Origin: Chloroflexota bacterium
GTDB lineage: Bacteria > Chloroflexota > UBA11872 > VXNJ01
Direction of reading: 5' to 3'
Assembly (NCBI GenBank): GCA_965207915.1
Contig: OZ242304.1
Span: forward strand, 1,389,581-1,453,580
Length of the DNA stretch: 64,000 bases
Part shown: piece after piece, positions 5,126 through 58,120 of the stretch
How the letters are laid out: every line of letters starts with the position of its first letter
Numbering within the stretch: the first letter of the stretch is position 1
The notes under the pieces: generated by a model
The model's database searches: none
What the model was told of the DNA's origin: nothing
Seen by the model: the letters and a program-made list of their open reading frames with translations, nothing else
Translations under genes and position numbers: made by a program

Positions 5126-5509
5126 CTAGTCGGCGCTGTTCTCCAGCAACTCGATTTCATACCCGTCGGGGTCGTCGATGAACGCCATTTTCAGGTTGGC
5201 GAACGCCGATCGCCAGTCGTCCGGCCAGATCTCGACGCCTTTTTGCTCCAGGCCCTCGCAGTAGGCTGTCAGGTCGTCGACGCCGATCGCAAAGTGCATG
5301 AGGTCCTCGGGAACGGCGAGATCGTAATCGGGCGAATAGGTCAGCTCGAGGGTGTGGGCGTTGCCGGGCAATTCGAGGTGCGCGATCTGGTTTCCGTGCG
5401 GCGAACGGGCGCTGCGCGATTTGACGACGAAACCGAAGTGTTCCTCGTAGAAGCTGATCGAATTTTCCAGGTCGGCGACCCGGATGCGGGTGTGGAGGAA
5501 CGTGTTCAT
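5126..5509 (-). CDS. VOC/glyoxalase family protein (lactoylglutathione lyase-like)
   Basis: 127 aa. HTRIRVADLENSISFYEEHFGF is the typical glyoxalase I N-terminal motif. Confidence 0.75.
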   Translation of the reverse strand: MNTFLHTRIRVADLENSISFYEEHFGFVVKSRSARSPHGNQIAHLELPGNAHTLELTYSPDYDLAVPEDLMHFAIGVDDLTAYCEGLEQKGVEIWPDDWRSAFANLKMAFIDDPDGYEIELLENSAD

Positions 5510-5590
5510 GGGTATGCGAGACCTTTGACCGGACTGGCGGCATTCATTCGAAAAATTTTCCTGTAACCCGTCGGTTGGGCCGCGGCCGAA

Positions 5591-6331
5591 TCAATCGCGC
5601 TCGTAGACCGAGATGTGGCCGGGGCTGGCGGCCGTGAAGGGGGAGCGGTGCCAATCGGCCCAACGCGAACGCAACCGCAATCCGGCCAGCCGGGCCATCA
5701 GGTCGAGCTCGGCGGGCCAGGCGTAACGGATCGCCACCGGGAAGATCTCTATTCCGGCGGGCGAGAGGCGCAGATGTGAAGAAACGACCGACTGGGTGAC
5801 CGGGTCGTGGCGGTCGAGATTGACGGTGACGCTGTCTGGCGCTATGTTGCCGGTCGAGATGTGCTGGCCGCGCTCGAAGCGGCCCATGTCGGGCACGAAG
5901 GCCTCGATCACCAGGGTCCCGTCGTCGCCAAGGTGGCGGGCGACCGACTGCAGGCAACTGACCTGTTCGTCCTGACTGGTGAGGGCAAAAAACGTGTTGA
6001 AAACAACGAATACCAGCGAATACGACGACCCCAGATCAAACCGGGCGAAGTCCCCGAGATGCACCGGAATATCGGCCCCGCCCGGTTTCTGGCGCATTTT
6101 TTCAATCATGGCCGCGGATGCATCCAATCCTTCGACCTTCACTCCGCGCCGCGCCATCGGCAGGGCAATGCGCCCGGTGCCGATCCCCAGCTCTAGCGCC
6201 GGGCCGTCGCCGGCCAGTTCGGCGAGGATTTTGATCGCGGGATCGACTGCTTCGGGGGTGTCAAGGTGGGCATGGACCTGGTCGTAGACCTCGGCCCAGC
6301 GGTCGCCGTACGTGGATGCGTCGTTTTCCAT
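5591..6331 (-). CDS. Class I SAM-dependent methyltransferase
   Basis: 246 aa taken from the internal ATG (MENDASTYG...). SAM-binding motif LELGIGTGRIALPMA and motif II/III spacing are present. The long upstream extension of the track ORF (to 7426) is a shadow of the SDR gene on the other strand. Confidence 0.7.
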   Translation of the reverse strand: MENDASTYGDRWAEVYDQVHAHLDTPEAVDPAIKILAELAGDGPALELGIGTGRIALPMARRGVKVEGLDASAAMIEKMRQKPGGADIPVHLGDFARFDLGSSYSLVFVVFNTFFALTSQDEQVSCLQSVARHLGDDGTLVIEAFVPDMGRFERGQHISTGNIAPDSVTVNLDRHDPVTQSVVSSHLRLSPAGIEIFPVAIRYAWPAELDLMARLAGLRLRSRWADWHRSPFTAASPGHISVYERD

Positions 6332-6511
6332 CAAAAGACTGTACAGCCCGCATCGGAGCAGTCCGACTGCAGTCCGGATCCGGGTGCGGGGCGCGGGCCC
6401 GGTTAACCCCAAAATTGGGTCGGCCGGACCTGGTTCCGGTGCAGTTGCTTCCCGATGTCGACCGAGGGTTCGCCCGGCCGCCCGATCGATGCCCCAAAAA
6501 GGAGAAAACCG

Positions 6512-7282
6512 ATGGATTCGCGTGTGGCCTGGATAACCGGTTCGGGTCGGGGACTCGGCGCGGCGATCGCGCGGCGCCTGGCGGCCGACGGCCTGACCGT
6601 CTGCCTGAGCGACCTGGACCTTGCCGCGGCGCAGGAAGTGGCCGCGGAAATCGAGTCCGCCGGCGGCGCGGCGCTGGCCATGCACGGCGACGTGACCGAT
6701 CAGGAATCGACTGATTCCAACATCGGCCAGATCCTGGACAGCTACGGAAGGATCGATGTCCTGGTGGCCAACGCCGGCATCATCATCGCCGGTCCGCCGG
6801 AGGAATTGGACATTGAAAAATTCCAGAAGATTCTGGATGTAAACACTCTGGGCGTCTGGCGCTGCAACCGGGCGGTGGTGCCGACCATGAAGCGGCAGCG
6901 CAGCGGCAAGATCATCAACTGCGCCTCGATCGCCGGCCACCGCGGCAGCAAGGACAACGCGATCTACTGCGCCTCGAAGTTCGCGGTCGTGGGCCTGACC
7001 CAGGCGCTGGCCCACGACATGGCCGAATTCGGCGTTACCGTCAACGCCTACTGCCCGGGGATCGTCGATACCGACATGTGGGTCTATATGGACAAGGTCC
7101 GCAGCGACCTGATGGGCCGCGAGCTCGGCGCCGGATTGCAGGCGGCAATCGACCAGATTCCCCTGGGGCGCGTCGAACAGCCCGAGGACGTAGCCAATTT
7201 CGTCAGCTTCCTGGCTTCGCCCGACTCGGATTACATGACCGGCCAGTCGGTGAACATCTGCGGCGGGCTCCACATGCTCTGA
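6512..7282 (+). CDS. SDR family NAD(P)-dependent oxidoreductase
   Basis: TGSGRGLGAAIARRLA Rossmann motif, NAG motif (VANAGI) and catalytic YxxxK (YCASK). Strong RBS AAAGGAG lies 7 nt upstream of the ATG at 6512. Confidence 0.85.
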   Translation: MDSRVAWITGSGRGLGAAIARRLAADGLTVCLSDLDLAAAQEVAAEIESAGGAALAMHGDVTDQESTDSNIGQILDSYGRIDVLVANAGIIIAGPPEELDIEKFQKILDVNTLGVWRCNRAVVPTMKRQRSGKIINCASIAGHRGSKDNAIYCASKFAVVGLTQALAHDMAEFGVTVNAYCPGIVDTDMWVYMDKVRSDLMGRELGAGLQAAIDQIPLGRVEQPEDVANFVSFLASPDSDYMTGQSVNICGGLHML

Positions 7283-7322
7283 TGCGCATGGCGCAACGGG
7301 CAGTACGGCAACTTCTGGCAGA

Positions 7323-8324
7323 TTGAACGCAACCGCTAACCCGACCACCCGAAGGGCCCGGACGGACAGCCTATACCTGGACCCCTGGGACCATTCCAGC
7401 GCTCTATTGGAAGCCGATCTGCCCACACCGGATCAGGTCGAACCAGATGACGTCGACGTAACCGTAGAGACCGACGGGCCCTGGACCGCGCTGGCCCCGC
7501 CGGCTCCGTCTGCGGCCCCGCCAGTCACGTTCGTCGACGGAGTTCGCAGGACCCACGCGCGGCTCTATCACCAGGGTCCGGATGGGATTGTGGTGCCCGG
7601 ATTGTGCGCCTCGATCGCGGCCGGCAGCTGCACCTGGGAACCGGACGCCGGTCCGGCCCGTTCGCACTTTGGCCTGGTTCGCGCGCGGCGGGTCTGCCTG
7701 TTCGGGAACGGCAAGATGATCAAGCTTCCCGCGGCCGACGAGGTCAAGTTCGAGTCGATATCGAGCCCGGCCCACGACCTACCCGGACTGAGCGCGGCGC
7801 TCAACCAGCGAATGCGCGAGCTGGAGCTCGGGATCACGCGCGACGCGGACACCGGCGCCGGAATGCTGGTAGCCGACGGCCGGCTGGGCCGGCTGGGCGA
7901 CGTCGAGGTGATCGGATACATCAAGTCGCATCACCGGACCTATCTGCAGGATCCGGCGCAACGTCGCCTGGCGGGCGAGCTGGCGGCGGGTCAGCGCACG
8001 CCGCTCTTCGCCATCGGCGGCGCGGTCGAGGTCTATTCCTGGTACCTGGGCCTGTCCGCCGACGTTGACGCCCCGCCCTGGGCGGGAGTTGCCCGCTGCG
8101 AGGTCTCGGCCGCACTTGGCCGCCAGCGCGCGGCGCAATTGGCCGACCAGGCGACGACGCTGTTGCCGCGCGCGGTCCTGCCGCCGTGGCGCGAGGCGCG
8201 CTCGCCCCAGAACCTGGGCCCGATCGCCGCCCTGGAATGGCAGCTGCGACGCGAGCTGGGCGACGCCGGACTGCTGCGGCGCGCGATCGAGCTGGCGGTG
8301 CGGGCGTGGGAGGACGGGGAGTGA
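7323..8324 (+). CDS. NurA-like nuclease (putative partner of HerA)
   Basis: 333 aa with TTG start. The FVDG and LVADGRLGRL motifs are compatible with the NurA RNase-H-like DGS motifs. It sits immediately upstream of the HerA-like ATPase, and its stop overlaps the HerA GTG start (GTGA). Confidence 0.45.
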   Translation: MNATANPTTRRARTDSLYLDPWDHSSALLEADLPTPDQVEPDDVDVTVETDGPWTALAPPAPSAAPPVTFVDGVRRTHARLYHQGPDGIVVPGLCASIAAGSCTWEPDAGPARSHFGLVRARRVCLFGNGKMIKLPAADEVKFESISSPAHDLPGLSAALNQRMRELELGITRDADTGAGMLVADGRLGRLGDVEVIGYIKSHHRTYLQDPAQRRLAGELAAGQRTPLFAIGGAVEVYSWYLGLSADVDAPPWAGVARCEVSAALGRQRAAQLADQATTLLPRAVLPPWREARSPQNLGPIAALEWQLRRELGDAGLLRRAIELAVRAWEDGE

Positions 8325-10036
8325 GCGGCGGGGTCGACCAGCGCGTCGGCCTGGTCAGCGGGATCGAACCCTCGGCCAGCGGCGAGTTCGTGGTCGCTCT
8401 GGATCCGCAGGCCCACCTCGCGGTTGACGACCTGGTCTGCGTGCAGAGCGCGGTGCCCGGCATCCCGGACCCGGTCCTGACGTTCGGGATCGTGACCGAG
8501 AACCACGCCGCCCTGGAGGGGGCCCAGTACCAGTCCGACACCCACCGCATCAGCGACGAGGGCCTGCGGCCGGCGCAGTTGGTCCGATCGGCACAGATCG
8601 CCGTCACCCGGATACTGCCGGAGGTCTGGGTCGCTCCCAGCCCCGGCGCGCCGGTATTCAGGGTCGCCGGCGAGCGTCGCCGCCAGGCGATCTACCACGA
8701 CACGATGAGCCGGCCACTGGCGGTCGGAGTCGACACCCGCGGCGAACCGGTCTTTATCGACGTGCGCTACTTCGACGGCGACAGCGGCGGACACATGTCG
8801 ATCTCGGGCATTTCCGGAGTGGCCACCAAGACCACCTACGCGCTTTTCTTCCTGCGGTTGCTGGTCAGCGGCGGACTGGGCCCGGAGGCGGCCAACACCA
8901 GGGTTCTGGTCTTCAACGTCAAGGGCGAGGACCTGCTCTGGCTGGACAAGCGCTCGAACCAGTTCTCCGCCGAGGACGAGCGCGCCTGGCGCCGGCTCGG
9001 GACCGAAGCCGGCCCCTTCGCCCTGGCCGGCGGCGCCGGCTCGGGACCGAGCGTCTCCTTCTGGGCGCCGGCCGCCCCGGCCGCGCCGGACACCGTCGTC
9101 CCCGACGTGGCCGGGCGCCAGGACGGAGTCGGGGCCTTCTACTGGACCCCGCGCGAGTTCGTGCAACAGGGACTGTTGCGGTTCGTGTTCGCCGACCCCG
9201 CCGACGAGCGCTCGCAGCTCGGATTCGTCGAGGAGCGGGTCCGCACCCGCCTGCAGCGCGAATGCCAGGCGGCCGGCCGGAACGGGGCGCTGCTGCTGGA
9301 TGGAAACCGGATCGAGGACCTTGGTTCGCTGGCCCGGGCAATCGGGCAAAAGCTTGAACCCGAGGACGACCAGGAAGCCGATTACGCCTGGACCGGCCGG
9401 GTGGCCGCAGGGACGATTTCGGCGTTCATGCGCCGCCTGCTGGCGGCCGCCTCCCCGATGCGGCTGGGCCGGCTGGTGCGCTGCGGCCCGCCGCGCGGCA
9501 TCGACCGCGGCCTGGCCAACCTGACGGTGGTCTCGATCGCCAACCTTCACGAGCACGCCCAGCGATTCGTGGTCGGCGCGCTGCTCAAGGAGACGTTCGA
9601 GGAAAAGGAACGCACCGGCACGCGGCTGCCGCTCTCGGTGGTGATGCTGGACGAACTGAACAAGTACGCGCCGCGCAGCGGCGATTCGCCGATCAAGGAG
9701 ATGCTGGTCGACATCGCCCAGCGCGGCCGCTCGCTGGGGGTGCTGCTGGTGGGCGCCCAGCAGAGTGCATCGCGGGTCGACGCCTCGGTGCTGGACAACG
9801 CCGCGATCAAGGTCGTCGGACGCATGGACGCGGCCGAAGTGATGCACGACCAGTACGGCTGGATGCTGCCTTCGATGCGCCAGCGGGCGCGGCTGCTGCG
9901 CCCCGGGCAGATGGTCCTGCAGCAGCCGACCGTGCCCGTTCCGCTGACGCTGCGCTTCCCGCGCGTGCCGTGGGCCACGCGCGCCGACGAAGTCGCCGAC
10001 GACCCGGCGGCCGATCCTTTCGCCGGCCTTGCCTAG
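8321..10036 (+). CDS. HerA/FtsK-superfamily ATPase (DUF87, HerA-like)
   Basis: Walker B SVVMLDELNKY and the HerA-like C-terminal region. The Walker A is deviant (SGISGVATKTT: Lys is present but Thr replaces the preceding Gly). Start taken at the GTG overlapping the upstream stop codon. Confidence 0.6.
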   Translation: MSGGVDQRVGLVSGIEPSASGEFVVALDPQAHLAVDDLVCVQSAVPGIPDPVLTFGIVTENHAALEGAQYQSDTHRISDEGLRPAQLVRSAQIAVTRILPEVWVAPSPGAPVFRVAGERRRQAIYHDTMSRPLAVGVDTRGEPVFIDVRYFDGDSGGHMSISGISGVATKTTYALFFLRLLVSGGLGPEAANTRVLVFNVKGEDLLWLDKRSNQFSAEDERAWRRLGTEAGPFALAGGAGSGPSVSFWAPAAPAAPDTVVPDVAGRQDGVGAFYWTPREFVQQGLLRFVFADPADERSQLGFVEERVRTRLQRECQAAGRNGALLLDGNRIEDLGSLARAIGQKLEPEDDQEADYAWTGRVAAGTISAFMRRLLAAASPMRLGRLVRCGPPRGIDRGLANLTVVSIANLHEHAQRFVVGALLKETFEEKERTGTRLPLSVVMLDELNKYAPRSGDSPIKEMLVDIAQRGRSLGVLLVGAQQSASRVDASVLDNAAIKVVGRMDAAEVMHDQYGWMLPSMRQRARLLRPGQMVLQQPTVPVPLTLRFPRVPWATRADEVADDPAADPFAGLA

Positions 10037-10042
10037 CCGGGC

Positions 10043-11215
10043 ATGAGGGTCCTCCACACCGCCGACTGGCACTTGGGCAAGAAGCTGGGCCGGTTCGAAC
10101 GCTACGCGGAGATGGGCCAATTCGTTAACTGGCTGGTCGAGATCTGCCAACAGCGAACGGTCGACCTGGTGCTGATCGCCGGCGACCTGTTCGACACGCC
10201 ATCGCCACCCAACCGCGCGGTGTCGCTGGCCACCGAGGCGCTGCAGCGCCTGACCGGGCTGGGCGCACAGGTGGTGGCGATCGCCGGAAACCACGATTCG
10301 GCCGACTACTTTGAAAACCTCAACCGTTTCTCGGAACTGCACGGCGTCCACCTGGTCGGGCGCCCGCGCGGGCCCCAACAGGGCGGGATCCTGCGGGTCC
10401 AGACCCGCTCCGGTCCCGCGGCGGTGGCGTGCTGTCCGTACCTGCGCGAGCACGCGGTGGTCGATTTTTTTGCCGAGAGCGGCGAGCGGCACGGCGCCTA
10501 TAAGCAGCGCCTGGGGGCGGTCATGTCGGCGCTGGACCGGGGACTGGCCGACTATCCCGATTGCGTGCGACTGCTCATGGGGCATCTGGCCACTGACGGG
10601 GCGGTGCTCTCGCTCAGCGGGTCCGGACGCGAACCGCGCGGCGAACGCACCCTGACCATCGGCAACGCCTACGTGGTCTCCGGCCAGCAGTTGCCGCAGG
10701 TCGCCCAGTACACCGCCCTGGGGCACATTCATGCCGCGCAGAGGGTGCCCGCGCCCGGACTGGCCCGCTACGCCGGATCGCCGCTGGCGCTGGATTTCGG
10801 GGAACGGAAAGACCGCAAGCAGGTGGTTCTGATCGACGTCGCGCCCGACCGCAGCGCCGCGGTGGAGCCGATCGACGTGCCGCCGGGCCGGCGGCTGCGC
10901 TCGGTCAGCGGCAACTGGGACGAGCTGGTGGCACGCCGCGAAGAGTTCGGCGGCGACTACCTCTCGCTGACCGTAACCGGCGCTGACGCCCCGCGGGCGT
11001 TGTTGCAGCGCGCGGCCGAGACGTTTCCGCGGCTCGTGCGCGCCCACCCGGTTGCGGCCGGCGGCCAATCGCAGGAGCCGGGTCAGCGAATCGACCGCGA
11101 CTGGACCGAGATCTACGCCGAGTACGTGCGCTCGAGCGTCGGCGGCGAACCTCCCCAACCGCTCCTGGAGGAATTCCGCAGGGTTTACGCGACGGTGACC
11201 AATGCGTCCGATTGA
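10043..11215 (+). CDS. sbcD: DNA repair exonuclease SbcD/Mre11
   Basis: Calcineurin-like phosphoesterase motifs: DWHLG at the N-terminus, GDLFD, GNHD, GHIH. Confidence 0.85.
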   Translation: MRVLHTADWHLGKKLGRFERYAEMGQFVNWLVEICQQRTVDLVLIAGDLFDTPSPPNRAVSLATEALQRLTGLGAQVVAIAGNHDSADYFENLNRFSELHGVHLVGRPRGPQQGGILRVQTRSGPAAVACCPYLREHAVVDFFAESGERHGAYKQRLGAVMSALDRGLADYPDCVRLLMGHLATDGAVLSLSGSGREPRGERTLTIGNAYVVSGQQLPQVAQYTALGHIHAAQRVPAPGLARYAGSPLALDFGERKDRKQVVLIDVAPDRSAAVEPIDVPPGRRLRSVSGNWDELVARREEFGGDYLSLTVTGADAPRALLQRAAETFPRLVRAHPVAAGGQSQEPGQRIDRDWTEIYAEYVRSSVGGEPPQPLLEEFRRVYATVTNASD

Positions 11216-13745
11216 GCTGACGCTCAAGGACTTTAGGTCCTTTCAGGGTAGGCACAGCTTTTCCTTCGCCGGCCGGCGCCTGGTGGCGGTGGCCGGGCCG
11301 ATCGGGGCCGGCAAGACCTCGATCCTGGATGCGGTTGCCTACGCCCTCTACGGGCAGACCCCGAAACTGGGGCGCGCTTCGGCGGCACTGATCAACCAGG
11401 AGGCCGTCGAGATGTCGGTGAGGCTGCGGTTCAGGGTGGGCGCGAGCGCCTGGGAGGTGGAACGGCTGGCGCGCCGACGAGGTGCCGGCACCGCGGCGCT
11501 TTACCCCTACTCGGAGCCCGACGGCCGCAACACCGTGGAGCTGCTTAGCGGCGCGCGCAACGTCAATGCCCGCATTGAGGAAATCCTGGGCATGGATTTT
11601 GCCGCCTTCTCGCGCTCGATTTTGCTGCCGCAGGGCGAATTCGCGCAGTTCCTGCAGGCGACCGCAGCCGAAAAAGACCGGGTCCTGAAGGGCGTGTTCG
11701 GACTGGAACGAATCGACCGCATGCGCCAGCTGGCGCGTGAACGGGCTCTGGCGGCGGCGCTGGATGTGACCAGGGTCTCCGACGAGCTGGAGGAGTCCGA
11801 ATCTGCCGCCGCTGAAATTGAAAAGTTGGAACCCATGCTGGAACGAGCCGCTGAACGAGCGGCCGCGGTTGGCGCGCTGCAGTCGCAGGCCGCAGATCTG
11901 GACGCCGGCGAGCAGAAGGTGGCCAGCGCGCTGGAGAGTTTGGATGCGGGCGCCCGCGCGCTCTCCCGAGCCGCGAACCGCCTGCGCCCGGAGAAAGAAA
12001 TCACGGCGGCAGTCGCGGCCGCCGACGACGCCGCCGAAAAAAACCGCGGAGCGGCGGATCAGGTGCGGACTGCCCGCGAAAAGATGGAGTCGGCCGAGGC
12101 CGAAATGCGGCGGTTCCTGGGCGACCTGGGTGATGAGGCGGGCCTGGAGCGGGCCCGGGAGGCCGTCGACGAGCTGGCAATGCGGAGAAAGGGCGCGGCC
12201 GAATCGTCAGCGGAACTCGAAGGCGCCGCAAGGGCGCAGGCCGACTCGCGCCGGGAACTTGAGCGACTGGAGCTTGAGCTGGAAGAGGCGGCCGCAGCGG
12301 CCAGCGCCCGCGAGCGGAGCCTGCGGGCGGTCCGACGTGAACTGGAGATCGCCAGGGAACGGGTGGATGAACTGGAGCGGGCCGACATGGCAATGACGTT
12401 GCGCGAACACCTGGCCCGCGACGATGAGTGCCCGGTGTGCGGTCGTCTGATCAGCCAGTTGCCGGAGGGACACGTCCATCCCGACCTGGATACGGCCCGG
12501 GGCCGGTCCCGGCGCGCGGCCGCCGATCAGGATCGCGCCAGCGAAGCGCTGGCGGCCGCGCGCGAGCAAGCGGCCGGGCTGGAGGCGACCCGGACTGCGG
12601 CCGCGGCTCAGGCAAGCGAAGACCGGCGCGCGTTAGAGAATGCCCGCGCCGACGCCGCGGAAGCGGCCGCCGGTCTCGAGCGGGCCGCCGAGTCCGCCGC
12701 CGGACTTCTCTCTTCCGACGACCCGGAATCAGCGCTGGCGGACCTGGAAACGCGATTTGCCGGCCTGCGCCGAGCGGCCGCCGGAGCCGCCGGTGAATTC
12801 GCCTCATCGGTAGCCGCCGAGGCGGATGTTCGGGTCGCGGGCGAGGCGGCGCGGGCCGACGCGCAGGCGCTCGAACTCGAGCTGAGCGTGATCGCCGGGG
12901 AGATGGGGGTGCGGCCGAAGGACGCGGACCTTCCCGAAATGGGTGTCGCAGAGTTGGCGCGGCGCCTGCGCGATCATGCCCGGCACCGCCGCCGCGAGCT
13001 GGCCCGCGAGCGGGACTCGCTCACGCGTCGGGCGGCCGAGCTGGCCGAGGAGCGCCGCGATCTGCTGACCCGGTGGGACGTCCCCACCGGCGAGGGGGTC
13101 AACGATTTCGCGGCGCGGATCCACGCCGAGGCCGCCACCCTGCGCGCCCGCGAGCGAGAGCTCGGGCAAAAGGCGGCGCGGGGTGCCGATTTGGCGCGGG
13201 CCAAACGGGAACTTGAGCGCCGCCGCCGTCACCTGGAGCGCCTGGTCGAGGACCTGCGCGACAGCCGGTTCCTAAAGTACATGCTCGCCGGCAAGCGGGC
13301 CCAGCTGGCCGAGCTTGGCGGGGAGCGGATCCGCGAACTTACCGGCGGCCGATTCGGCTTCTCGCCCGGGGACCGGTTCGAGATAGTCGACTTTGGTGCC
13401 GCCGACCCGGAACTGCGGGTGCGCGGATCGGACACCCTTTCCGGGGGCGAGACCTTCCTGGCCTCCCTCAGCCTGGCGCTGGCACTGGCCGACCTGGTAG
13501 CCGGGCAGGGCGGACGGCTGGGCAGCTTCTTCCTGGACGAGGGTTTCGGCAGCCTCGATGCCGATCACCTGGCCATCGCCATGGACGGAATCGAGCGACT
13601 GGCGTCGGAGGCCGAGGACCGCCTGGTGGTTCTGGTCTCGCACGTCCCCGGGGTGCAGGAGAGAGTGGAGGACCAGATCGTCCTCGGCGCGCCGGCCGGC
13701 CCGGGCGGCGGTTCCAGGATCGTCTCCGGCGCCGTCCCCGCCTAG
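11202..13745 (+). CDS. sbcC: DNA repair ATPase SbcC/Rad50
   Basis: Walker A GPIGAGKTS, a long coiled-coil with zinc hook CPVCGR, ABC signature LSGGE, D-loop FFLDEGFGSLD and H-loop LVSHV. It overlaps sbcD by 14 nt. Confidence 0.85.
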   Translation: MRPIELTLKDFRSFQGRHSFSFAGRRLVAVAGPIGAGKTSILDAVAYALYGQTPKLGRASAALINQEAVEMSVRLRFRVGASAWEVERLARRRGAGTAALYPYSEPDGRNTVELLSGARNVNARIEEILGMDFAAFSRSILLPQGEFAQFLQATAAEKDRVLKGVFGLERIDRMRQLARERALAAALDVTRVSDELEESESAAAEIEKLEPMLERAAERAAAVGALQSQAADLDAGEQKVASALESLDAGARALSRAANRLRPEKEITAAVAAADDAAEKNRGAADQVRTAREKMESAEAEMRRFLGDLGDEAGLERAREAVDELAMRRKGAAESSAELEGAARAQADSRRELERLELELEEAAAAASARERSLRAVRRELEIARERVDELERADMAMTLREHLARDDECPVCGRLISQLPEGHVHPDLDTARGRSRRAAADQDRASEALAAAREQAAGLEATRTAAAAQASEDRRALENARADAAEAAAGLERAAESAAGLLSSDDPESALADLETRFAGLRRAAAGAAGEFASSVAAEADVRVAGEAARADAQALELELSVIAGEMGVRPKDADLPEMGVAELARRLRDHARHRRRELARERDSLTRRAAELAEERRDLLTRWDVPTGEGVNDFAARIHAEAATLRARERELGQKAARGADLARAKRELERRRRHLERLVEDLRDSRFLKYMLAGKRAQLAELGGERIRELTGGRFGFSPGDRFEIVDFGAADPELRVRGSDTLSGGETFLASLSLALALADLVAGQGGRLGSFFLDEGFGSLDADHLAIAMDGIERLASEAEDRLVVLVSHVPGVQERVEDQIVLGAPAGPGGGSRIVSGAVPA

Positions 13746-14197
13746 ACGGGTATCCCCGGGATGGTCGCGATCTGCACCGGGACGAGTTCGTCCTCGATGT
13801 AGACCCCGTCGGCAAAGTACATGCCGGTGGGATGGACCTTGCCGGTCACGGTGATTTCCGCCAGCAGGGCAAGGGCCGCGTATTCGGGTTCGTCAAGAAT
13901 CCCGAACAACACCGGCTGTACGCGGTTCTTTTCGTCTATCAGCTGAACGACCGCCGATTCCGGGCCGATCGGGACCAGGTCGATGCGGCTGCCGGGAGGC
14001 GGCCGGAGCAGGGTTCCGGGAATGACCTCGCCGGTCAAAGTGGTGCGGCTCTGATAACGCTCCTGGCCCAGGTCGTGCAGTTCGGTAACGCTGAGCGCCC
14101 CGTGCGGGCGTCCGCCGCAGCCGGCCAGCAGCAGGGCCAGGACCAGGGTTGCCGCCAGCGCCGCCCCACCGCGCCGCAGGCAACCGGCGGCGATCAA
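13742..14197 (-). CDS. Putative lipoprotein
   Basis: Signal peptide with lipobox LLAGC. 151 aa with no recognised domain. Confidence 0.5.
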   Translation of the reverse strand: MIAAGCLRRGGAALAATLVLALLLAGCGGRPHGALSVTELHDLGQERYQSRTTLTGEVIPGTLLRPPPGSRIDLVPIGPESAVVQLIDEKNRVQPVLFGILDEPEYAALALLAEITVTGKVHPTGMYFADGVYIEDELVPVQIATIPGIPV

Positions 14198-15054
14198 GCG
14201 CTGATGAAGGCGACCGCCAGCGCCTCGCGTCCCACGTGCGCGCCAATGGCCGGCGCGAGCGGTTCGGCGTCGTGCGTGTTTCCACTCACCTGAACCCGGT
14301 CCAGGATCGCCGTGCGCAATGATTCGAGCTGGCGTGGATCGCCGGAGCTGACGAACCCGATGTCGATGACCCCGTCGGGGGCGTTTTCGGCGGCGAAGTC
14401 AACCAGCATGGAGATCGCCCGCCGCATGCTGCGGGCGCGGCCGACCGGCTGCAACTCGCCCTCGCGCAATTCCAGGATCGGTTTGAATCCGAGCATCGTC
14501 CCGATCAGCGCGCGGGCGTTGCCGATGCGCCCGCCGCGGCGCAGGTACTCCAGCGTCGGCACCGCCACCGCCAGGCGGGTCCGATCGCGCAGTTTTTCGA
14601 GTTCGTCGAGGATGGCTTGAACGTCGCTACCCCCTTCGACCATGCGGGCCGCGGCCAGCACCAGCAGCCCGGAGGCGGTGGTTGCATTTAAGGAGTCGAA
14701 GACGTGAATGTGGGCGTCGGGGAACTGGGCGGCGGCCTGGGTGAATGAGGAGTAGGTGCCGCTCAATTTCGAGGAGATTGTTATCCCGAGCACGTCGTCG
14801 CCGGCCTCGACGTGCGGGCGCATGGCGTCGGCCACCTCGGTCGGCGTCGCCTGCGAGGTGGTGGGGTGGTCGGACGAGGTCTCCAGCAGGTCGTAGAAGC
14901 TGTCGGAGTCGAGATCGACCTGGTCCAGGTAGTCGGTCGTCCCGAACAGCACGTGCTGCGGGACCACGGTGATCCCGTAGCGTTCGACCTCGTCTGAGGG
15001 GACCGAGCAGGTTGTGTCAGTAACTATTCGGATCGCCATCTGTTGCCTCAACAT
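14194..15054 (-). CDS. DegV family fatty-acid-binding protein
   Basis: IRIVTDTTCSVP...TSQATP pattern of the DegV/EDD fold. The internal ATG at about 15039 (MAIRIV) has the better RBS. Confidence 0.75.
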   Translation of the reverse strand: MLRQQMAIRIVTDTTCSVPSDEVERYGITVVPQHVLFGTTDYLDQVDLDSDSFYDLLETSSDHPTTSQATPTEVADAMRPHVEAGDDVLGITISSKLSGTYSSFTQAAAQFPDAHIHVFDSLNATTASGLLVLAAARMVEGGSDVQAILDELEKLRDRTRLAVAVPTLEYLRRGGRIGNARALIGTMLGFKPILELREGELQPVGRARSMRRAISMLVDFAAENAPDGVIDIGFVSSGDPRQLESLRTAILDRVQVSGNTHDAEPLAPAIGAHVGREALAVAFISA

Positions 15055-27458: not shown

Positions 27459-27607
27459 TTGCCTCCTGCCCTCAAGATCTCGGTGTCCGGTTCGCGTGCC
27501 GCCGCGGCGTCGGCCCCGTGAAACCGCCCCTGCTCCCGGCCGAAAGCGCGCTTCCCGGGACCGACCGGAACCCCGGCCGGAGCGCTTCGGAACCCGCCCT
27601 GCGCCCC

Positions 27608-29116
27608 ATGGGGATCGAGACCGAGTACGGAATGATCTGCCTCGGCTTCGAGGGGCCGGTGGACTTTGCGTTTGAGGCCTCTACGCTGGTGCGGGCGGCC
27701 GAAATCGAACCGGTGTTCCGGGGCTGGGACTATTCGCACGAGGACGGCCGGCTGGATCTCTTCGGCCAACGCCATCGCCTGGCCCGCGATCCGGGCGATC
27801 TGGCCGACAACCGGCGCCGCAGCGCCGGGCTGTCGCGGCAGGAGCTCATCGCCGACACGGTCCTGCCGAATGGCGCCCGCTACTACAACGATCACAACCA
27901 CCCCGAGTACTGCACCGACGTGACCCGCTCGGTCTTCGAGCTGGTCCGCCAGGACGCCGCCGGCGAGGAGCTGTTGCTCTCCTGCCAGAGAGTCCGCAAC
28001 GCCGCCGGCCTGGAGGGCCAGGTACTGGTAGTCAAAAACAACACCGACTACCACGGTCGCTCCTATGGCACGCACGAGAACTACCTGGTCGACCGCCGGC
28101 TCGACCTGCGGTTCCTGATCGGCCAGCTGGTCCCGTTCCTGGTCTCGCGGATCGCCCTGACCGGCGCCGGCAAGTTCGGCAGCGAAGGGCAGCACGCCGA
28201 CCGGTCGGTCGGGCTGCAGATATCGCAGCGGGCCGATTTCTTCGCCCGCGTCAGCGGCATCAACACCACCACCGACCGCCCGATCTTCAACACCCGCGAC
28301 GAACCGCACAGCCGGCCCGACCGCTACCGCCGCCTGCACGTGATCTGCGGAGACGCCAACCGCTCGCACTACCAGACGGCGCTCAAGGCGGGCCTGACGG
28401 CGCTAGTGCTGGATCGGATCGAGGCCGGCCACGACTTCGGGGTCGCGCTCAACGACCCGGTCCGGGCGATGCGCGCCTTCTCGCGCGATCCGGGCCTTGA
28501 GGCCGTGGTCGAGACTTCGCGCGGGCGCCTGGCGTTGCTGGACGTATTGGAAATCTACCTGGACGCGGTGACCGAGTCGGCGCCGGGATCGGGTGAACGC
28601 GCCTGGATCATCGGCCAGAGTCGCGAACTGCTCGACCAGCTGCGCAGCGATCCCTCGGCGGCCGCCGACCGGGTCGACTGGTGCGCCAAAGCCGGGCTGG
28701 TCGCCGCGCTCGAGGACGGCGGGGAACCCCTTACCGGTTCCGAGCTGCAGCGCCTGGATCTGGCCTACCATTACCTCGATCCGCGCTACTCGACGCACCT
28801 CCAGCTGGTCGGCCAGGGCCGGATGCGCTCCCTGGTGGCGCCGGAGCAGGCGGGCGCGGCGCTGCGCCGCGCGCCAAGTGACACCCGGGCCCGCCTGCGC
28901 GGCCTGCTCGTTGCCCGATTCGGCGGACTGATCGAGGCGATCGAATGGGACTCGGTGCAACTGCGCCTCGGCGACCGGCGGCTGCGGATCGATCTGGGCG
29001 AGGTCCATTCAGGCGATATCGACGAACTCTCGGCCGCGGCCGAGCGGGCGGCCGACGCCGCGGCCTTGGAGCGCGCGCTGGCCCGCTCCGGACTGGTCGC
29101 GTTCGGGGAACGATAA
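27608..29116 (+). CDS. Pup ligase/deamidase family protein (PafA-like by N-terminal motif GIETEYG)
   Basis: MGIETEYG N-terminus and the carboxylate-amine ligase fold typical of PafA/Dop. Assigning it as PafA rather than Dop is tentative. Confidence 0.75.
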   Translation: MGIETEYGMICLGFEGPVDFAFEASTLVRAAEIEPVFRGWDYSHEDGRLDLFGQRHRLARDPGDLADNRRRSAGLSRQELIADTVLPNGARYYNDHNHPEYCTDVTRSVFELVRQDAAGEELLLSCQRVRNAAGLEGQVLVVKNNTDYHGRSYGTHENYLVDRRLDLRFLIGQLVPFLVSRIALTGAGKFGSEGQHADRSVGLQISQRADFFARVSGINTTTDRPIFNTRDEPHSRPDRYRRLHVICGDANRSHYQTALKAGLTALVLDRIEAGHDFGVALNDPVRAMRAFSRDPGLEAVVETSRGRLALLDVLEIYLDAVTESAPGSGERAWIIGQSRELLDQLRSDPSAAADRVDWCAKAGLVAALEDGGEPLTGSELQRLDLAYHYLDPRYSTHLQLVGQGRMRSLVAPEQAGAALRRAPSDTRARLRGLLVARFGGLIEAIEWDSVQLRLGDRRLRIDLGEVHSGDIDELSAAAERAADAAALERALARSGLVAFGER

Positions 29117-29146
29117 TCGCGGCACCTTGGTGATAGCCGGGTCGAT

Positions 29147-29359
29147 TTGAGAGGCAGGTTGCAGGTGCGTTCAGATCAAGTCGACGCCGGTCCGGACCGA
29201 ATCTGCCTGGAGACCGACGCACCGGCCAAACCGGACACTGAGACCGAGACCGATCCGGCCGAGGCGCCGGACGAGGGCAAGGAAGAGGAGCTCGGCGAGC
29301 GGGTACGGCGGATCATCCGCGAAATCCCCGATCCGACGCCGCAACCGGGCGGGCAGTAG
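29147..29359 (+). CDS. Pup/UBact-like small protein modifier (ends in GGQ)
   Basis: About 65-70 aa, acidic and disordered (DTETETDPAEAPDEGKEEELGERVRR), terminating in GGQ. It sits between two Pup-ligase-family genes, 7 nt upstream of the next. Non-ATG start: TTG at 29147 or GTG at 29165. Confidence 0.5.
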   Translation: MRGRLQVRSDQVDAGPDRICLETDAPAKPDTETETDPAEAPDEGKEEELGERVRRIIREIPDPTPQPGGQ

Positions 29360-29365
29360 AAGGCC

Positions 29366-30916
29366 ATGCAGGACGCGCTGTTCGGGACCGAAGTCGAGTT
29401 CGGCGTAACCGGCGCGGTCGACGCGCCGCTGGCGGCGGCGATGGTCAAGACCGAGATCTTCGACGGCTACCGCTACGGGGTGGTCGATCCGGCGCCCCGC
29501 GAGTGGGGCGAGACCCCCGCCAACGGCGGTTTTCTGTTCAACGGCGGTCGCCTGCTGATCGACTCCGGGCACCTCGAATACGCCACTCCCGAATGCCGCA
29601 CCCTGGCCTCGCTGGTGGCCCAGGAAATGGCCGTCGAGCAGATTCTGGGCGAGACGGTCGGGCGATTGGGCAAGGACGAGAGCATCTACTTCGTCAAGAG
29701 CAACACCGACTACTGTGGCAACACCTTCGGCTACCACGAGAGCTATTCGATGCGCCGCCGCCCCGACGACGACCTGGTCATCGCCGGGCTCATGCCGTTC
29801 CTGGTCACCCGCCAGATCTTCGCCGGGGCCGGGATGGTCTTCTTCGGCGGCCGCAACGAAGTGGCCCGGTACTTCATTTCGCAGCGGGCCCAGTTCGCCG
29901 ACGTGGGGGTTTCGCGGCGGGTCCGCTACGGCGGCCGCCCGATCATCAACCTGCGCGACGAGCCACTGGGGACCAGGGCCCGCCTGCACGTGATCATCGG
30001 CGACGCCAACCGTTCCGAATACGCCACCGCGCTCAAGATTGGCACGGCCGCGCTGGTAACCCAGCTCCTTGACGGCGGCTGGACCCAGCCGCTGACGCTC
30101 AGTACTCCGGTCCGCGATCTGCGCCAGATAGCGGCCAACACCGAGGGCGACTGGACGGTCCAGGACGAGCGCTACGGTTCGGTTTCCGCGGTGGAGGTGC
30201 AGCGCCTTTACCTGCACGAGGCCACGCGGCGCTTCGCCGGCCGCGACGCCGACACCGACTGGACGCTGGAGAACTGGGCCGCGGTGCTCGACCAGCTGGA
30301 AAGCGACCCCGAAAAGCTGAACGGCAAGCTGGACTGGGTCACCAAGCGCGGCGTGCTGCGCGAGGTCGCCGGCGAGAGCGAATCGGGCTGGAGCGATCGG
30401 GACCTGCTCAAGGTCGATCAGGCCTATCACATAGTGGGATCCGAGCAGAGCGTGTTCGCCGCGCTGCGCGAGCGCTCCGAGATGGGTTTTCTGCTGCCGG
30501 CGCCGGTGGCCCGGCGGGCGATCGCCTCCCCGCCCACCGACACCCGCGCGTTCGCCCGGGCCCAGGTCCTGCGGGCCCTGGCCGAGGCCGGCGCGGCCGA
30601 TCACGTGAACTGGCGGCGGCTGCGCAACGGACTGTCCGACTACGCACTGTGGGAGGGCCGCCTGTACCGGGTCTATTCCTACATTGACGGCTGGGAGGAG
30701 ATCGAGGCCTCCGGAGCCTGGGACGTGGTGCCCTACGTGCTGGACTGGGAATCAATCGCGGTCAACGGCGCGGTGCTGCAGATCAGCGATCCGTTTGAAC
30801 GCTATGCCGAGGATTCGGCCGCGTTCGCCGGGCAGATCGGCCAACTGCTCGAAGAACCCCCCTACGACGAGGCCGAATACGAGGAAGACGATCTCGATCC
30901 GGGGGAGGGCCTTTGA
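29366..30916 (+). CDS. Pup ligase/deamidase family protein (Dop-like by N-terminal motif GTEVEFG)
   Basis: The GTEVEFG N-terminus resembles the Dop GTEVEYG motif. Same fold as the 27608 gene and a paralog of it. Confidence 0.75.
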   Translation: MQDALFGTEVEFGVTGAVDAPLAAAMVKTEIFDGYRYGVVDPAPREWGETPANGGFLFNGGRLLIDSGHLEYATPECRTLASLVAQEMAVEQILGETVGRLGKDESIYFVKSNTDYCGNTFGYHESYSMRRRPDDDLVIAGLMPFLVTRQIFAGAGMVFFGGRNEVARYFISQRAQFADVGVSRRVRYGGRPIINLRDEPLGTRARLHVIIGDANRSEYATALKIGTAALVTQLLDGGWTQPLTLSTPVRDLRQIAANTEGDWTVQDERYGSVSAVEVQRLYLHEATRRFAGRDADTDWTLENWAAVLDQLESDPEKLNGKLDWVTKRGVLREVAGESESGWSDRDLLKVDQAYHIVGSEQSVFAALRERSEMGFLLPAPVARRAIASPPTDTRAFARAQVLRALAEAGAADHVNWRRLRNGLSDYALWEGRLYRVYSYIDGWEEIEASGAWDVVPYVLDWESIAVNGAVLQISDPFERYAEDSAAFAGQIGQLLEEPPYDEAEYEEDDLDPGEGL

Positions 30917-32606: not shown

Positions 32607-33683
32607 ATGGAATATCGCACGTTCGGCGACTCGGAGCTGGAAGTCTCGGTGATCGGGTTCGGCGGCTGGCCGATGGGCGGGTCAAATTACGGCCTGGTCG
32701 ACGACGGCGAAAGCAAGGCCGCGGTTCGGCGTGCGTTCGACCTGGGAATCACCTGTTTCGACAACGCCGCCGTCTACGGCGTGGGCCATTCCGAGCGCGT
32801 GATGGGGGCGGCGCTCAAACCGATACGCGACCAGATCGTGCTGGTGACCAAGTGCGGGCTGGCCTGGAACGACGAGGTCAAGCGCGTCGAGCGCAACGGC
32901 ACCCGGGAAAGCGTCATCGCATCCTGCGAGCGGAGCCTCAAGGATCTTGGGACCGACTACATCGACCTGCTGCTGGTCCACTGGCCCGACGTTTACACCC
33001 CCTTCGAGGAGACGATGCGGGCGCTCGAAGAACTCCGGCAGGCCGGCAAGATCCGCTACGCCGGGGTCTCCAACTTCATGCCCGAGATGCTGGAGGAGTG
33101 CCGGCGGCACCTGGGGATCGTGGCCAATCAGATGGGATATTCGCTGCTGGAACGCCGCATCGAGCGCGACGTGATGCCATGGTGTGAAGAAAACGGGATC
33201 GGGATCATGGGTTATGGCTCGCTGGCCCACGGCCTGCTCTCGGGGGCGATGGACGCCGGCCACCAGTTCGAGACCGGCGACTGGCGGGCTACCGGTCACG
33301 CATTCGGACTGCCGATCTTTGACCGCGAAAAGCACTTCCCGGCCAACGTGGAAGTCCAGAACCGGCTCCGCGCAATTGCCGTACGCGAAGGCCACACCCT
33401 GCCCGAACTTGCGACGGCCTGGGTTCTTGCCCAGGAGGTCGTGACCACCGCGCTGGTCGGATTCCGGACCCCGGCCGAAGTCGACGAGGCTGCCCGCGCG
33501 GCCGACTGGAAGCTCACGGCCGAGCTCTCCGCCGAGGTGACCGCGATCTCCGACGAGGCCTACCAGCGCAACGTCGCCGACGAGCTGTTGACCCCGCCGA
33601 TCGGAAACTGGAATCCGTGGAACCGGCAACCGCAGCGGTTCGGCACCGCCGGACTCTCGCCCTCCGATCGGACAGACGACTAG
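32607..33683 (+). CDS. Aldo/keto reductase (copy 1 of 3)
   Basis: MEYRTFGDSELEVSVIGFGGWPMGG and the AKR catalytic tetrad context (LGITCFDNAAVYG...HWPD). Confidence 0.85.
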   Translation: MEYRTFGDSELEVSVIGFGGWPMGGSNYGLVDDGESKAAVRRAFDLGITCFDNAAVYGVGHSERVMGAALKPIRDQIVLVTKCGLAWNDEVKRVERNGTRESVIASCERSLKDLGTDYIDLLLVHWPDVYTPFEETMRALEELRQAGKIRYAGVSNFMPEMLEECRRHLGIVANQMGYSLLERRIERDVMPWCEENGIGIMGYGSLAHGLLSGAMDAGHQFETGDWRATGHAFGLPIFDREKHFPANVEVQNRLRAIAVREGHTLPELATAWVLAQEVVTTALVGFRTPAEVDEAARAADWKLTAELSAEVTAISDEAYQRNVADELLTPPIGNWNPWNRQPQRFGTAGLSPSDRTDD

Positions 33684-33864
33684 GTTGCAGCCGCTCGCGC
33701 GGCGCCTTGAGAATCCCGGCTGTCCTTTTCCGGGCTCGTGAACGACCGGCCGCCGGCGGGTAGCTTTGAGGGACGAAGAGGGGCGTTGAATCCGTCAATA
33801 ATGGGCGGTCAATGCGCCCCGCGGACGCTCACCCTGCGCGGCGCCCGGGAATGGATGGACGGCG

Positions 33865-34902
33865 ATGGAATACCGCAAGTTTGGTGATTCGGAACTCGAG
33901 GTCTCGGTTGTCGGGTTCGGCGGCTGGCCGATGGGTGGAAATTACGGCGAGTCCGACGACAGCGAAGGCCAGGCTGCGGTGCGGCGCGCGCATGAATTGG
34001 GGGTCACCTGCTTCGACAACGCCGCCGTTTACGGGCAGGGGCACTCCGAGCGGGTGATGGGCGCGGCGCTCAAACCGATACGCGACCAGATCGTGCTGGT
34101 GACCAAGTGCGGACTTGACCGCGACCCCGAGGGCGGCGGAGTGATCCGCAACGGCACCCGTGCCCACGTGCTGGAGTCCTGCGAGCGGAGCCTGAAGAAC
34201 CTGGACACCGACTACATCGACCTGATGCTGGTCCACTGGCCGGACATCTTCACCCCATTCGAGGAGACCATGCGGGCGCTGGAAGAGCTCCACCGGACCG
34301 GCAAGATTCGCTACGCCGGGGTGTCGAACTTCCTGCCGGACATGCTGGAGGAATGCAAGAAGCACTTCGGCATCGTCGCCAACCAGATGGGCTACTCGAT
34401 GCTGGACCGGCGCATCGAACGCGACGTGATGCCCTGGTGCGGGCAGAACGGGATCGGGATCATGAGCTACGGCTCGCTGGCCCACGGCCTGCTGTCGGGG
34501 GCCATGACCGCCGAATACGAATTCAAGCCGAACGACTGGCGCTACTCGGGCAACGCCTTCGGACTGCCGTTTTTTGATCGCGCGAAGCACTTCCCGGCCA
34601 ACATCCAGACCCAGGACCGGCTGCGGGCGATCGCCGAGCGCGAGGGCCACACCCTCCCCGATCTGGCGCTCTCCTGGGTGGTCTCGCACGAGACGGTAAC
34701 CACCGCGCTGGTCGGATTCACCACTCCGGGACAGGTCGAGGATGCGGCCCGCGCGGCCGAGTGGAAACTCTCGCCCGAGCTCTACGCCGAAGTGACCGCG
34801 ATATCCGACGAGGCCTACCAGCGCAACGTCTCGGGCGAGATGATGGCCCCGCCGGTGGGAACCAAGAACGCCTGGAATCCCAACCCGACCAAGTTCGCCT
34901 AA
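33865..34902 (+). CDS. Aldo/keto reductase (copy 2 of 3)
   Basis: Paralog of copy 1 (MEYRKFGDSELEVSVVGFGGWPMGG). Confidence 0.85.
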   Translation: MEYRKFGDSELEVSVVGFGGWPMGGNYGESDDSEGQAAVRRAHELGVTCFDNAAVYGQGHSERVMGAALKPIRDQIVLVTKCGLDRDPEGGGVIRNGTRAHVLESCERSLKNLDTDYIDLMLVHWPDIFTPFEETMRALEELHRTGKIRYAGVSNFLPDMLEECKKHFGIVANQMGYSMLDRRIERDVMPWCGQNGIGIMSYGSLAHGLLSGAMTAEYEFKPNDWRYSGNAFGLPFFDRAKHFPANIQTQDRLRAIAEREGHTLPDLALSWVVSHETVTTALVGFTTPGQVEDAARAAEWKLSPELYAEVTAISDEAYQRNVSGEMMAPPVGTKNAWNPNPTKFA

Positions 34903-35033
34903 CCGTGGTCGCCGGGTGAGGCGTTGAACCGCCCGGGCCGGACCGCGCGCGGTCCGGCATTGCCAGAATTGGCGGCGCCAGAACCGCGCCGGCGCCGTGT
35001 CGGCCGCGTAGCCAGGGAATAGCCAAAAACGCC

Positions 35034-56570: not shown

Positions 56571-58120
<1,550 letters not shown>

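Follow-up and report, generated by a model that had tools for sequence, protein, structure and literature searches.

The 64-kb stretch of Chloroflexota DNA analyzed here (contig OZ242304.1, about 67% G+C overall; hereafter the window) carries four adjacent co-directional genes, nurA, herA, sbcD and sbcC, at positions 7323-13745. We conclude, with a probability of roughly 0.8, that they form a chromosomal operon encoding a complete nuclease and motor set for DNA double-strand ends. Judged from their sequences, all four proteins are intact and carry their catalytic motifs. The operon is neither rare nor archaeal in protein type and consists of known enzymes from known bacterial families. A preliminary description of the same DNA had called the locus an archaeal-style operon. 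The gene content does match, and profiles and structures bear out NurA, HerA, SbcD (Mre11) and SbcC (Rad50) in one tight cluster, but profiles, structures and the ranking of the SbcCD relatives mark each of the four as bacterial in type.

Gene organization and conservation of the cluster

The four genes are closely packed. The TGA stop codon of nurA (8322-8324) is interleaved with the GTG start codon of herA (8321-8323) as GTGA, a 6-nt gap separates the herA stop from the sbcD start, and the co-oriented sbcD and sbcC reading frames overlap by 14 nt. Upstream, a gene for a short-chain dehydrogenase/reductase (SDR) ends at 7282, 40 nt before nurA; this neighbor is not conserved across related genomes. 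The co-directional arrangement, both overlaps and the distance to the SDR gene had been pointed out in the preliminary description, and all agree with the sequence and the list of open reading frames (ORFs). The overlapping and abutting frames point to co-translation, which would supply the four proteins in fixed proportions, and we infer that the four genes are co-transcribed.

The start of herA at 8321 is backed by the N-termini of homologs and by the gene calls on a near-identical contig, JAPPLS010000016.1, from the Chloroflexota metagenome-assembled genome (MAG) GCA_028874095.1, which we used for comparison. On the same grounds we rejected a longer herA start at 8186 given by the mechanical ORF list. 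The closest protein relatives of the nurA and herA products are labeled Chloroflexi or Chloroflexota bacterium. We discarded an antisense ORF at 8033-11227 (1064 aa) as a typical shadow ORF of high-GC DNA; it lies opposite herA and sbcD, whose products have clear homologs. At the other end of the cluster, a 151-aa ORF at 13742-14197 runs on the minus strand toward sbcC, and the two share 4 nt at the sbcC stop codon. This ORF has no Pfam match and was predicted as a gene on two near-identical contigs too; it lies outside the conserved module.

A scan with a HerA alignment, covering one genome per GTDB species, found at least 564 stretches encoding a relative. Synteny was analyzed by tblastn with the four window proteins in the best 80 of these at least 564 loci plus two loci from a plasmid database, 82 independent loci in total. 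The order nurA-herA-sbcD-sbcC occurs in 50 of the 82 loci and the order herA-sbcD-sbcC-nurA in 19, and two further loci contain herA-sbcD-sbcC with the upstream side cut by the contig end. The four-gene association is thus found in 71 loci (50 + 19 + 2), and most of the others end at a contig boundary, consistent with either order. With so many loci sharing it, the cluster is not a product of chance. The sbcD gene follows herA directly in 76 of the 79 loci with enough flanking sequence, usually after a gap of 0-30 nt; three loci (L055, L067 and L078) have sufficient downstream sequence yet no adjacent sbcD. In nearly all related loci nurA adjoins herA or closes the cluster. The preliminary description had held that bacterial HerA-NurA pairs are not fused to sbcCD, but fusion prevails, and it had already been noted for Oceanithermus profundus (PMC5448004).

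In a HerA homolog search, 6,952 clusters at 90% identity were found among 8,000 candidates scored, with 55-60% identity across phyla; among 50%-identity representatives there are 283 HerA clusters at E<=1e-30. Carriers of the module include Dehalococcoidia, Chloroflexia, Thermoleophilia and many MAGs of Acidimicrobiia and Actinomycetes, the cultured genera Amycolatopsis, Glycomyces and Pilimelia, and MAGs labeled Acidobacteriota, Gemmatimonadaceae and Gammaproteobacteria. Plasmid carriers are a Streptomyces linear plasmid and a conjugative plasmid of the cyanobacterium Sphaerospermopsis. Some HerA relatives at only 30-35% identity are still followed by Metallophos/SbcD and SbcC genes; others are not. 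In a rough neighbor-joining tree rooted on HerA of Deinococcus radiodurans (drHerA), the loci with the order herA-sbcD-sbcC-nurA form one clade, and the rest, the window included, have the nurA-first order. The HerA proteins of four MAGs labeled Acidobacteriota, Gemmatimonadaceae or Gammaproteobacteria (L038, L051, L066 and L078) are nested in Actinomycetota clades. The preliminary description had allowed that the same fused operon might prove widespread and well described; it is widespread, but it is barely described in the literature.

The NurA protein

The nurA product has no direct match among the Pfam, NCBIfam or PADLOC models. A search with the Pfam NurA model PF09376, which had been proposed as a check, stays below threshold on the window protein itself but reaches threshold with a few of the 127 relatives from a homolog search. 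A family profile built from 47 sequences, on the other hand, matches D. radiodurans NurA (drNurA, 7f6d_H) over its full length with E=2.4e-58 and Thermotoga TM1739 (1zup) with E=3e-23; the pairwise identity of the window protein to drNurA is 34%. The AlphaFold model, built on the family alignment, has a predicted local distance difference test (pLDDT) value of 89.7 and a predicted template modeling score (pTM) of 0.87, and its sole significant Foldseek matches in the PDB are 7f6d_G (E 1.6e-17, template modeling (TM) score 0.67) and 1zup (E 1.8e-13). The 7323 ORF is predicted from this model to have the RNase-H-like fold of NurA. Its earlier assignment as a NurA-like nuclease candidate is therefore upheld by the profile match and by AlphaFold and Foldseek, and the protein is of the bacterial type.

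The 47 homologs all have D72, E168 and D185, which align with D53, E155 and D184 of drNurA. In line with the NurA literature, they would be the catalytic metal-binding residues. At the N-terminus, at least 90% of the NurA homologs share W22, and the hidden Markov model (HMM) alignment pairs it with W8 of drNurA in the sequence RIRLDPW. In drNurA, W8 adjoins a pin-like motif, and its mutation lowers resection (PMC9960219). In the window model, residues 16-19 form a strand, and the pin region is modeled with low confidence (pLDDT 53-59) and has low sequence similarity.

The HerA protein and its P-loop

The herA product reaches no Pfam model and has only weak matches, confined to the Walker B region, among the NCBIfam and PADLOC models. 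The HerA family profile matches drHerA (7f6d_B) with E=2.7e-148, positions 5-568 aligning on 11-603, and the pairwise identity is 43%. The homology spans the HAS-barrel, the RecA-like domain and the inserted helical bundle. The AlphaFold model (pLDDT 79) has drHerA 7wrw/7wrx as its top Foldseek matches, with a TM-score of 0.83-0.84 and E 1e-50. The next tier of structures consists of Sir2-HerA, DUF4297-HerA and the Thermococcus and Sulfolobus HerAs, with E-values of 1e-22 to 1e-19, TM-scores of 0.5-0.6 and 12-15% identity. Archaeal HerA equivalog models score only 15-16 bits on the window protein (E 4e-3 to 5e-3), with cutoffs at 800-970. By this ranking of profiles and structures, the 8321 ORF encodes a genuine HerA of the bacterial, Deinococcus-type clade that is about equally remote from archaeal and defense-associated HerAs. 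The concern that it might fall in a non-HerA FtsK clade is removed by the profile and structural matches, which place it with drHerA. On the placement that had been suggested, the profile and structural rankings indicate the Deinococcus type. By analogy with drHerA, the protein would be a hexameric DNA-dependent ATPase and translocase (PMC9960219).

The Walker A motif had been described as deviant. It does depart from the GxxxxGK[ST] consensus, but it is the norm of the family: the pattern SG[IV]SG[VI]A[TS]KT[ST] occurs in 91 of 91 related loci, including relatives at ~30% identity, the P-loop is invariant in two HerA family alignments (A1 and A3), and that of drHerA (SGISGVATKT) is identical to the one in the window. 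In the drHerA crystal structure, K175 pairs with the ADP beta-phosphate and T176 coordinates Mg2+, and mutants of K175 and of D487/E488 lose both ATPase and resection activity (PMC9960219). Because it is universal in the clade and functional in drHerA, GISGVATKT is a clade signature P-loop and neither a defect nor a local novelty. The Walker B motif is intact, as previously stated, and like the acidic pair it is invariant in A1 and A3.

SbcD and SbcC

SbcD scores above the cutoff of the TIGR00619 (sbcd) model, with an E-value of 1.1e-47, and matches PF00149 at 1.5e-13; its SbcD_C domain reaches 22 bits, with a cutoff of 24.4. The motifs DWHLG, GDLFD, GNHD, MGHL and GHIH are all present. Among solved structures, E. 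coli SbcD (9e-34) ranks before Thermotoga Mre11 (4e-18) and Pyrococcus Mre11 (3e-10). SbcC passes the cutoffs of AAA_23, SMC_N and SbcC_Walker_B and matches TIGR00618 (sbcc) with E=2.5e-60. Its score of 204 bits lies below the full-length cutoff of 478 bits, which is consistent with a shorter coiled coil. The closest solved structure is again from E. coli (SbcC, 1.2e-31), followed by Thermotoga Rad50 (2.6e-24) and archaeal Rad50 (4e-16). Bacterial SbcD and SbcC models far outscore the archaeal Mre11 and Rad50 models on both window proteins.

Comparison with characterized systems

The closest characterized system is the D. radiodurans NurA-HerA pair (DR_0836/DR_0837; PDB 7F6D, 7WRW and 7WRX), to which both window proteins are homologous over their full length. 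The two pairs share the P-loop, the DE of Walker B, the acidic pair of HerA, the acidic residues of NurA and probably its N-terminal strand with the tryptophan, and in both genomes nurA lies immediately upstream of herA. They differ in that the window pair is joined to sbcD-sbcC in one cluster, whereas sbcCD presumably sits elsewhere in the D. radiodurans genome. Window NurA, unlike drNurA, has a 15-residue N-terminal extension, modeled with low confidence, and R96 and R552 of drHerA, which were mutated in its study, correspond to Q92 and H509 in window HerA. The mechanism described for the bacterial pair is translocation-coupled 5' resection with a pin-like motif (PMC9960219).

According to two recent papers, only a few bacteria, such as Deinococcus-Thermus, possess NurA-HerA (PMC9960219, PMC11442139), and in Thermus, nurA and hepA are described as a two-gene "duet" (PMC5448004). 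Blesa et al. (2017) noted sbcD and sbcC downstream of hepA (herA) in O. profundus and read this as a secondary recruitment (PMC5448004). As far as its description goes, that locus resembles the window, with bacterial-type proteins and sbcD/sbcC directly after herA. It was treated as a one-off within the Thermales, whereas the arrangement is common in Actinomycetota, Chloroflexota, Cyanobacteria and others. A literature search on the fused operon in Actinobacteria, Chloroflexi, cyanobacteria and Streptomyces returned only this Oceanithermus remark, though an earlier mention in older comparative work is possible.

The archaeal herA-mre11-rad50-nurA operons of Sulfolobus, Pyrococcus and Thermococcus share with the window the four roles, the clustering of the genes and the folds, namely the HerA HAS-barrel with a RecA-like core, the RNase-H-like NurA, the Mre11 phosphoesterase and the Rad50 zinc hook. 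As the same roles are clustered in archaea, the working logic is expected to be the same, with recognition or clipping of ends followed by motor-driven resection. The archaeal HerA Walker A motif is canonical, and archaeal HerA is remote in sequence from the window protein (models E ~4e-3; structures TM ~0.58 and 13-15% identity). Archaeal NurA is without the pin-like motif and dimerizes in another way (PMC9960219). The window SbcCD is of the E. coli type and not the archaeal one, and the gene order is also unlike that of the archaeal operon. E. coli SbcCD (PDB 6S6V, 4LTY) supplies the best solved relatives, with shared motifs, a CxxC hook and two overlapping genes. It differs from the window in that sbcCD is unlinked to nurA-herA and SbcC is longer (1048 aa compared with 847 aa), so that the coiled coils of the window protein are presumably shorter.

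Proposed function and alternatives

The mechanism that we propose draws on the Deinococcus complex and on archaeal work. An SbcC2-SbcD2 complex would bind DNA ends and, with ATP, clip those that are blocked, hairpin-shaped or protein-bound. A HerA hexamer would then load at the end of the duplex and use ATP hydrolysis to push it into a NurA dimer on the face of the hexamer. NurA would part the strands and digest the 5' strand, so that a 3' tail remains for RecA. By analogy with the archaeal proteins, SbcCD and NurA-HerA may cooperate physically or functionally in bacteria as well.

Several points weigh against this proposal. To our knowledge, the evidence that SbcCD-type proteins cooperate with NurA-HerA comes from archaeal proteins alone. 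Deletion of nurA or herA in Deinococcus or Thermus, the only bacteria in which genetic work has been done, leads to modest effects or even improved damage resistance, and the physiological role of bacterial NurA-HerA has been called controversial (PMC9960219). A consensus scan of 5400-14600 gave one promoter-like site with 0.7 expected, which is uninformative, and detected no plus-strand terminator downstream of sbcC. The incongruent HerA placements in the tree reflect either some horizontal transfer or binning errors. In addition, some relatives lie on plasmids beside defense genes or in a defense island.

These last contexts bear on a possible role of the module in defense against phages or plasmids, comparable to Lamassu, Wadjet, Sir2-HerA or DUF4297-HerA. 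Invading linear or hairpin DNA would then be recognized and degraded by SbcCD, as the SMC-like ATPase/nuclease, together with the HerA motor and its nuclease effector, NurA. We consider this improbable for the window locus. PADLOC does return defense models for HerA ("HerA Type III coevolved" with 5e-9 at residues 402-542 and mad8 with 1e-7) and for SbcC (mad3 with 2e-26 and LmuB with 1e-22). However, the SMC-head and HerA ATPase folds are what the window proteins share with Lamassu LmuB and MADS mad3/mad8, and the matches are weak, partial and confined to generic ATPase regions, around Walker B in HerA and in the SMC heads of SbcC; no PADLOC model matches NurA. Anti-phage HerAs (Sir2-HerA/Nezha, DUF4297-HerA) likewise share the fold, at a TM-score of ~0.55 and 13% identity compared with a TM-score of 0.83 for drHerA, and neither their effectors (Sir2, DUF4297), nor LmuA, nor a DNA-modification methylase adjoins the operon in the window. 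The identity of HerA across phyla is also unusually high for a defense gene.

At the window the context is one of housekeeping and not of defense: the neighboring genes encode a glycosidase, sulfatases, a glyoxalase, a small S-adenosylmethionine (SAM) methyltransferase, the SDR, DegV, tRNA-Lys, GyrA, MoaC and a ClpB-like ATPase, and further genes encode acetyl-CoA carboxylase subunits, phosphofructokinase, ribonucleotide reductase and chorismate synthase. The recurrent flanking families of related loci (aconitase, thiolase, CoA-transferase, sugar kinase and transporters) are metabolic too, none being found in more than 14 of the 82 loci. No relatives turned up when viral contigs were scanned with the HerA alignment, and only 6 of 72,556 plasmid database records contain one, among them a Nonomuraea record of 11.85 Mb that is evidently a chromosome. 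Evidence in favor of defense comes from other members of the family. One locus (L089; metagenome contig Ga0268387_1064988, 1-15857) carries a diverged herA-sbcD-sbcC-nurA-like module in an apparent anti-phage defense island, with a HerA of 31% identity and a NurA-like fourth gene (hhalign probability 98.7%), flanked by a SIR2_2 gene, a DUF1156/HmaB DNA methylase gene and a DUF499 gene. Another, on the linear plasmid of Streptomyces sp. BB1-1-1 (L083; NZ_CP134205.1, 1-17620; order herA-sbcD-sbcC-nurA), adjoins an ImmA/IrrE peptidase gene and TIGR02680/TIGR02678/DUF2397 genes, the latter of which we take to be the Wadjet-type JetC/JetB/JetA set. The cyanobacterial copy on a conjugative plasmid points the same way. 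It may well be that one branch of the module family has been recruited for defense, and the contexts of L089 and of the Streptomyces plasmid are therefore the reason to keep defense as a minor rival for the window. The defense role raised in the preliminary description thus has little support at the window itself, given the housekeeping context, the weak PADLOC matches and the lack of viral copies, and finds its support in the diverged L089 branch.

Still less likely is a role in DNA transfer or replicon maintenance, through partition or cell-to-cell transfer, instead of repair. Koonin and Wolf (2008) interpreted HerA-NurA operons as plasmid-partitioning machinery (PMC2588523), and a Thermus study links loss of HepA, the HerA homolog, to changed "transjugation", a conjugation-like process (PMC5448004); a few copies also lie on plasmids. 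The tight, conserved linkage to SbcCD, a DNA-end nuclease, argues against such a role, no conjugation, partition or replication genes lie near the operon in the window, and the nearest characterized homolog performs end resection (PMC9960219). A recent wholesale import of an archaeal herA-mre11-rad50-nurA cluster would explain why the gene content is that of thermophilic archaea, and bacterial HerA has been described as archaeal in origin (PMC5448004). But all four proteins are much nearer to bacterial than to archaeal relatives, the GC content of the region (0.66-0.72) is in line with the rest of the genome, and the cluster is common to hundreds of bacterial species in coherent clades; the similarity ranking effectively refutes this reading. 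We retain the processing of DNA double-strand ends as the most probable function of the window operon.

Feature coordinates and other features of the window

The positions of the four genes and of their motifs are collected in Table 1.

Table 1 Genes of the nurA-herA-sbcD-sbcC operon and predicted motifs of their products, in window coordinates
Feature	Position (nt)	Strand	Residues (aa)	Basis or remark
nurA (bacterial-type NurA, predicted nuclease)	7323..8324	+		333 aa, TTG start
NurA predicted N-terminal strand and conserved W22 in LDPW	7377-7388	+		HMM alignment
NurA predicted active-site D72 in FVDGVRR	7530-7550	+		alignment
NurA predicted active-site E168		+		alignment
NurA predicted active-site D185 in VADGRL	7869-7886	+		alignment
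herA (bacterial-type HerA hexameric DNA translocase/ATPase, predicted)	8321..10036	+		571 aa, GTG start
HerA Walker A/P-loop GISGVATKTT	8807-8836	+	163-172	K170/T171 = drHerA K175/T176
HerA predicted catalytic acidic pair E203/D204 in NVKGEDL	8915-8935	+		= drHerA E219/D220
HerA Walker B MLDELNKY	9644-9667	+	442-449	D444/E445 = drHerA D487/E488
sbcD (Mre11-family nuclease subunit)	10043..11215	+		390 aa
sbcC (Rad50-family SMC-like ATPase)	11202..13745	+		847 aa
SbcC Walker A GPIGAGKTS	11295-11321	+		motif
SbcC zinc hook CPVC	12429-12440	+	410-413	motif
SbcC signature LSGGE	13437-13451	+		motif
SbcC Walker B FFLDEG	13527-13544	+		motif
SbcC H-loop VSHV		+		motif

Elsewhere in the window, two genes of the Pup-ligase family (Dop/PafA-like; 27518-29116 and 29366-30916) flank a 70-aa ORF at 29147-29359 on the plus strand, which ends in PQPGGQ, the C-terminal signature of Pup (prokaryotic ubiquitin-like protein). 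No proteasome subunit genes lie between the two Pup-ligase-family genes (27518-30916). Pupylation has chiefly been described in Actinobacteria, and the cassette stands out in a Chloroflexota genome. Three tandem aldo/keto reductase paralogs of 358, 345 and 358 aa are encoded on the same strand at 32607-36110. The gene at 37120-40011, whose product is the large subunit of a ribonucleotide reductase and has ATP-cone domains, lies in the stretch of lowest GC content (0.54 compared with ~0.67). An interpretation of the low-GC 36-40 kb region as an rRNA or foreign island was rejected, as Rfam gave only one tRNA in the window and the stretch encodes the reductase; either compositional constraint or horizontal acquisition could account for its composition. 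A 1463-aa protein with many leucine-rich repeats and with cadherin-like and fibronectin-III domains ("eukaryote-like") is encoded at 58322-62713 on the minus strand, and its gene adjoins an IS110-family transposase gene at 56634-57848 on the plus strand.

Significance

Taken alone, the window locus is a well-formed example of known enzymes and carries small weight. The breadth of bacterial NurA-HerA, with relatives in at least 564 species-level genomes, and its near-constant linkage to SbcCD in the loci examined are not reflected in the current literature or annotation. The Pfam models for NurA (PF09376) and HerA and the NCBIfam HerA models miss the bacterial clade, despite the structures 7F6D and 7WRW, and public records label nurA "hypothetical protein" and herA "ATP-binding protein", RefSeq for the Streptomyces plasmid included. 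The module is therefore largely invisible in the annotations of hundreds of genomes. The linkage to SbcCD offers a testable hypothesis for the disputed role of bacterial NurA-HerA, and tractable culturable carriers exist in Amycolatopsis, Glycomyces, Streptomyces plasmids and the Nostocales. We see about even odds that the four-gene operon is the default, possibly ancestral, state of bacterial NurA-HerA, spread over at least several hundred species of Actinomycetota, Chloroflexota, Cyanobacteria and other phyla, and that Deinococcus and Thermus, with their unlinked pair and puzzlingly weak knock-outs, are the atypical cases. If this is true, SbcCD and NurA-HerA would resect DNA ends as a single machine in many bacteria that have never been studied in this respect.

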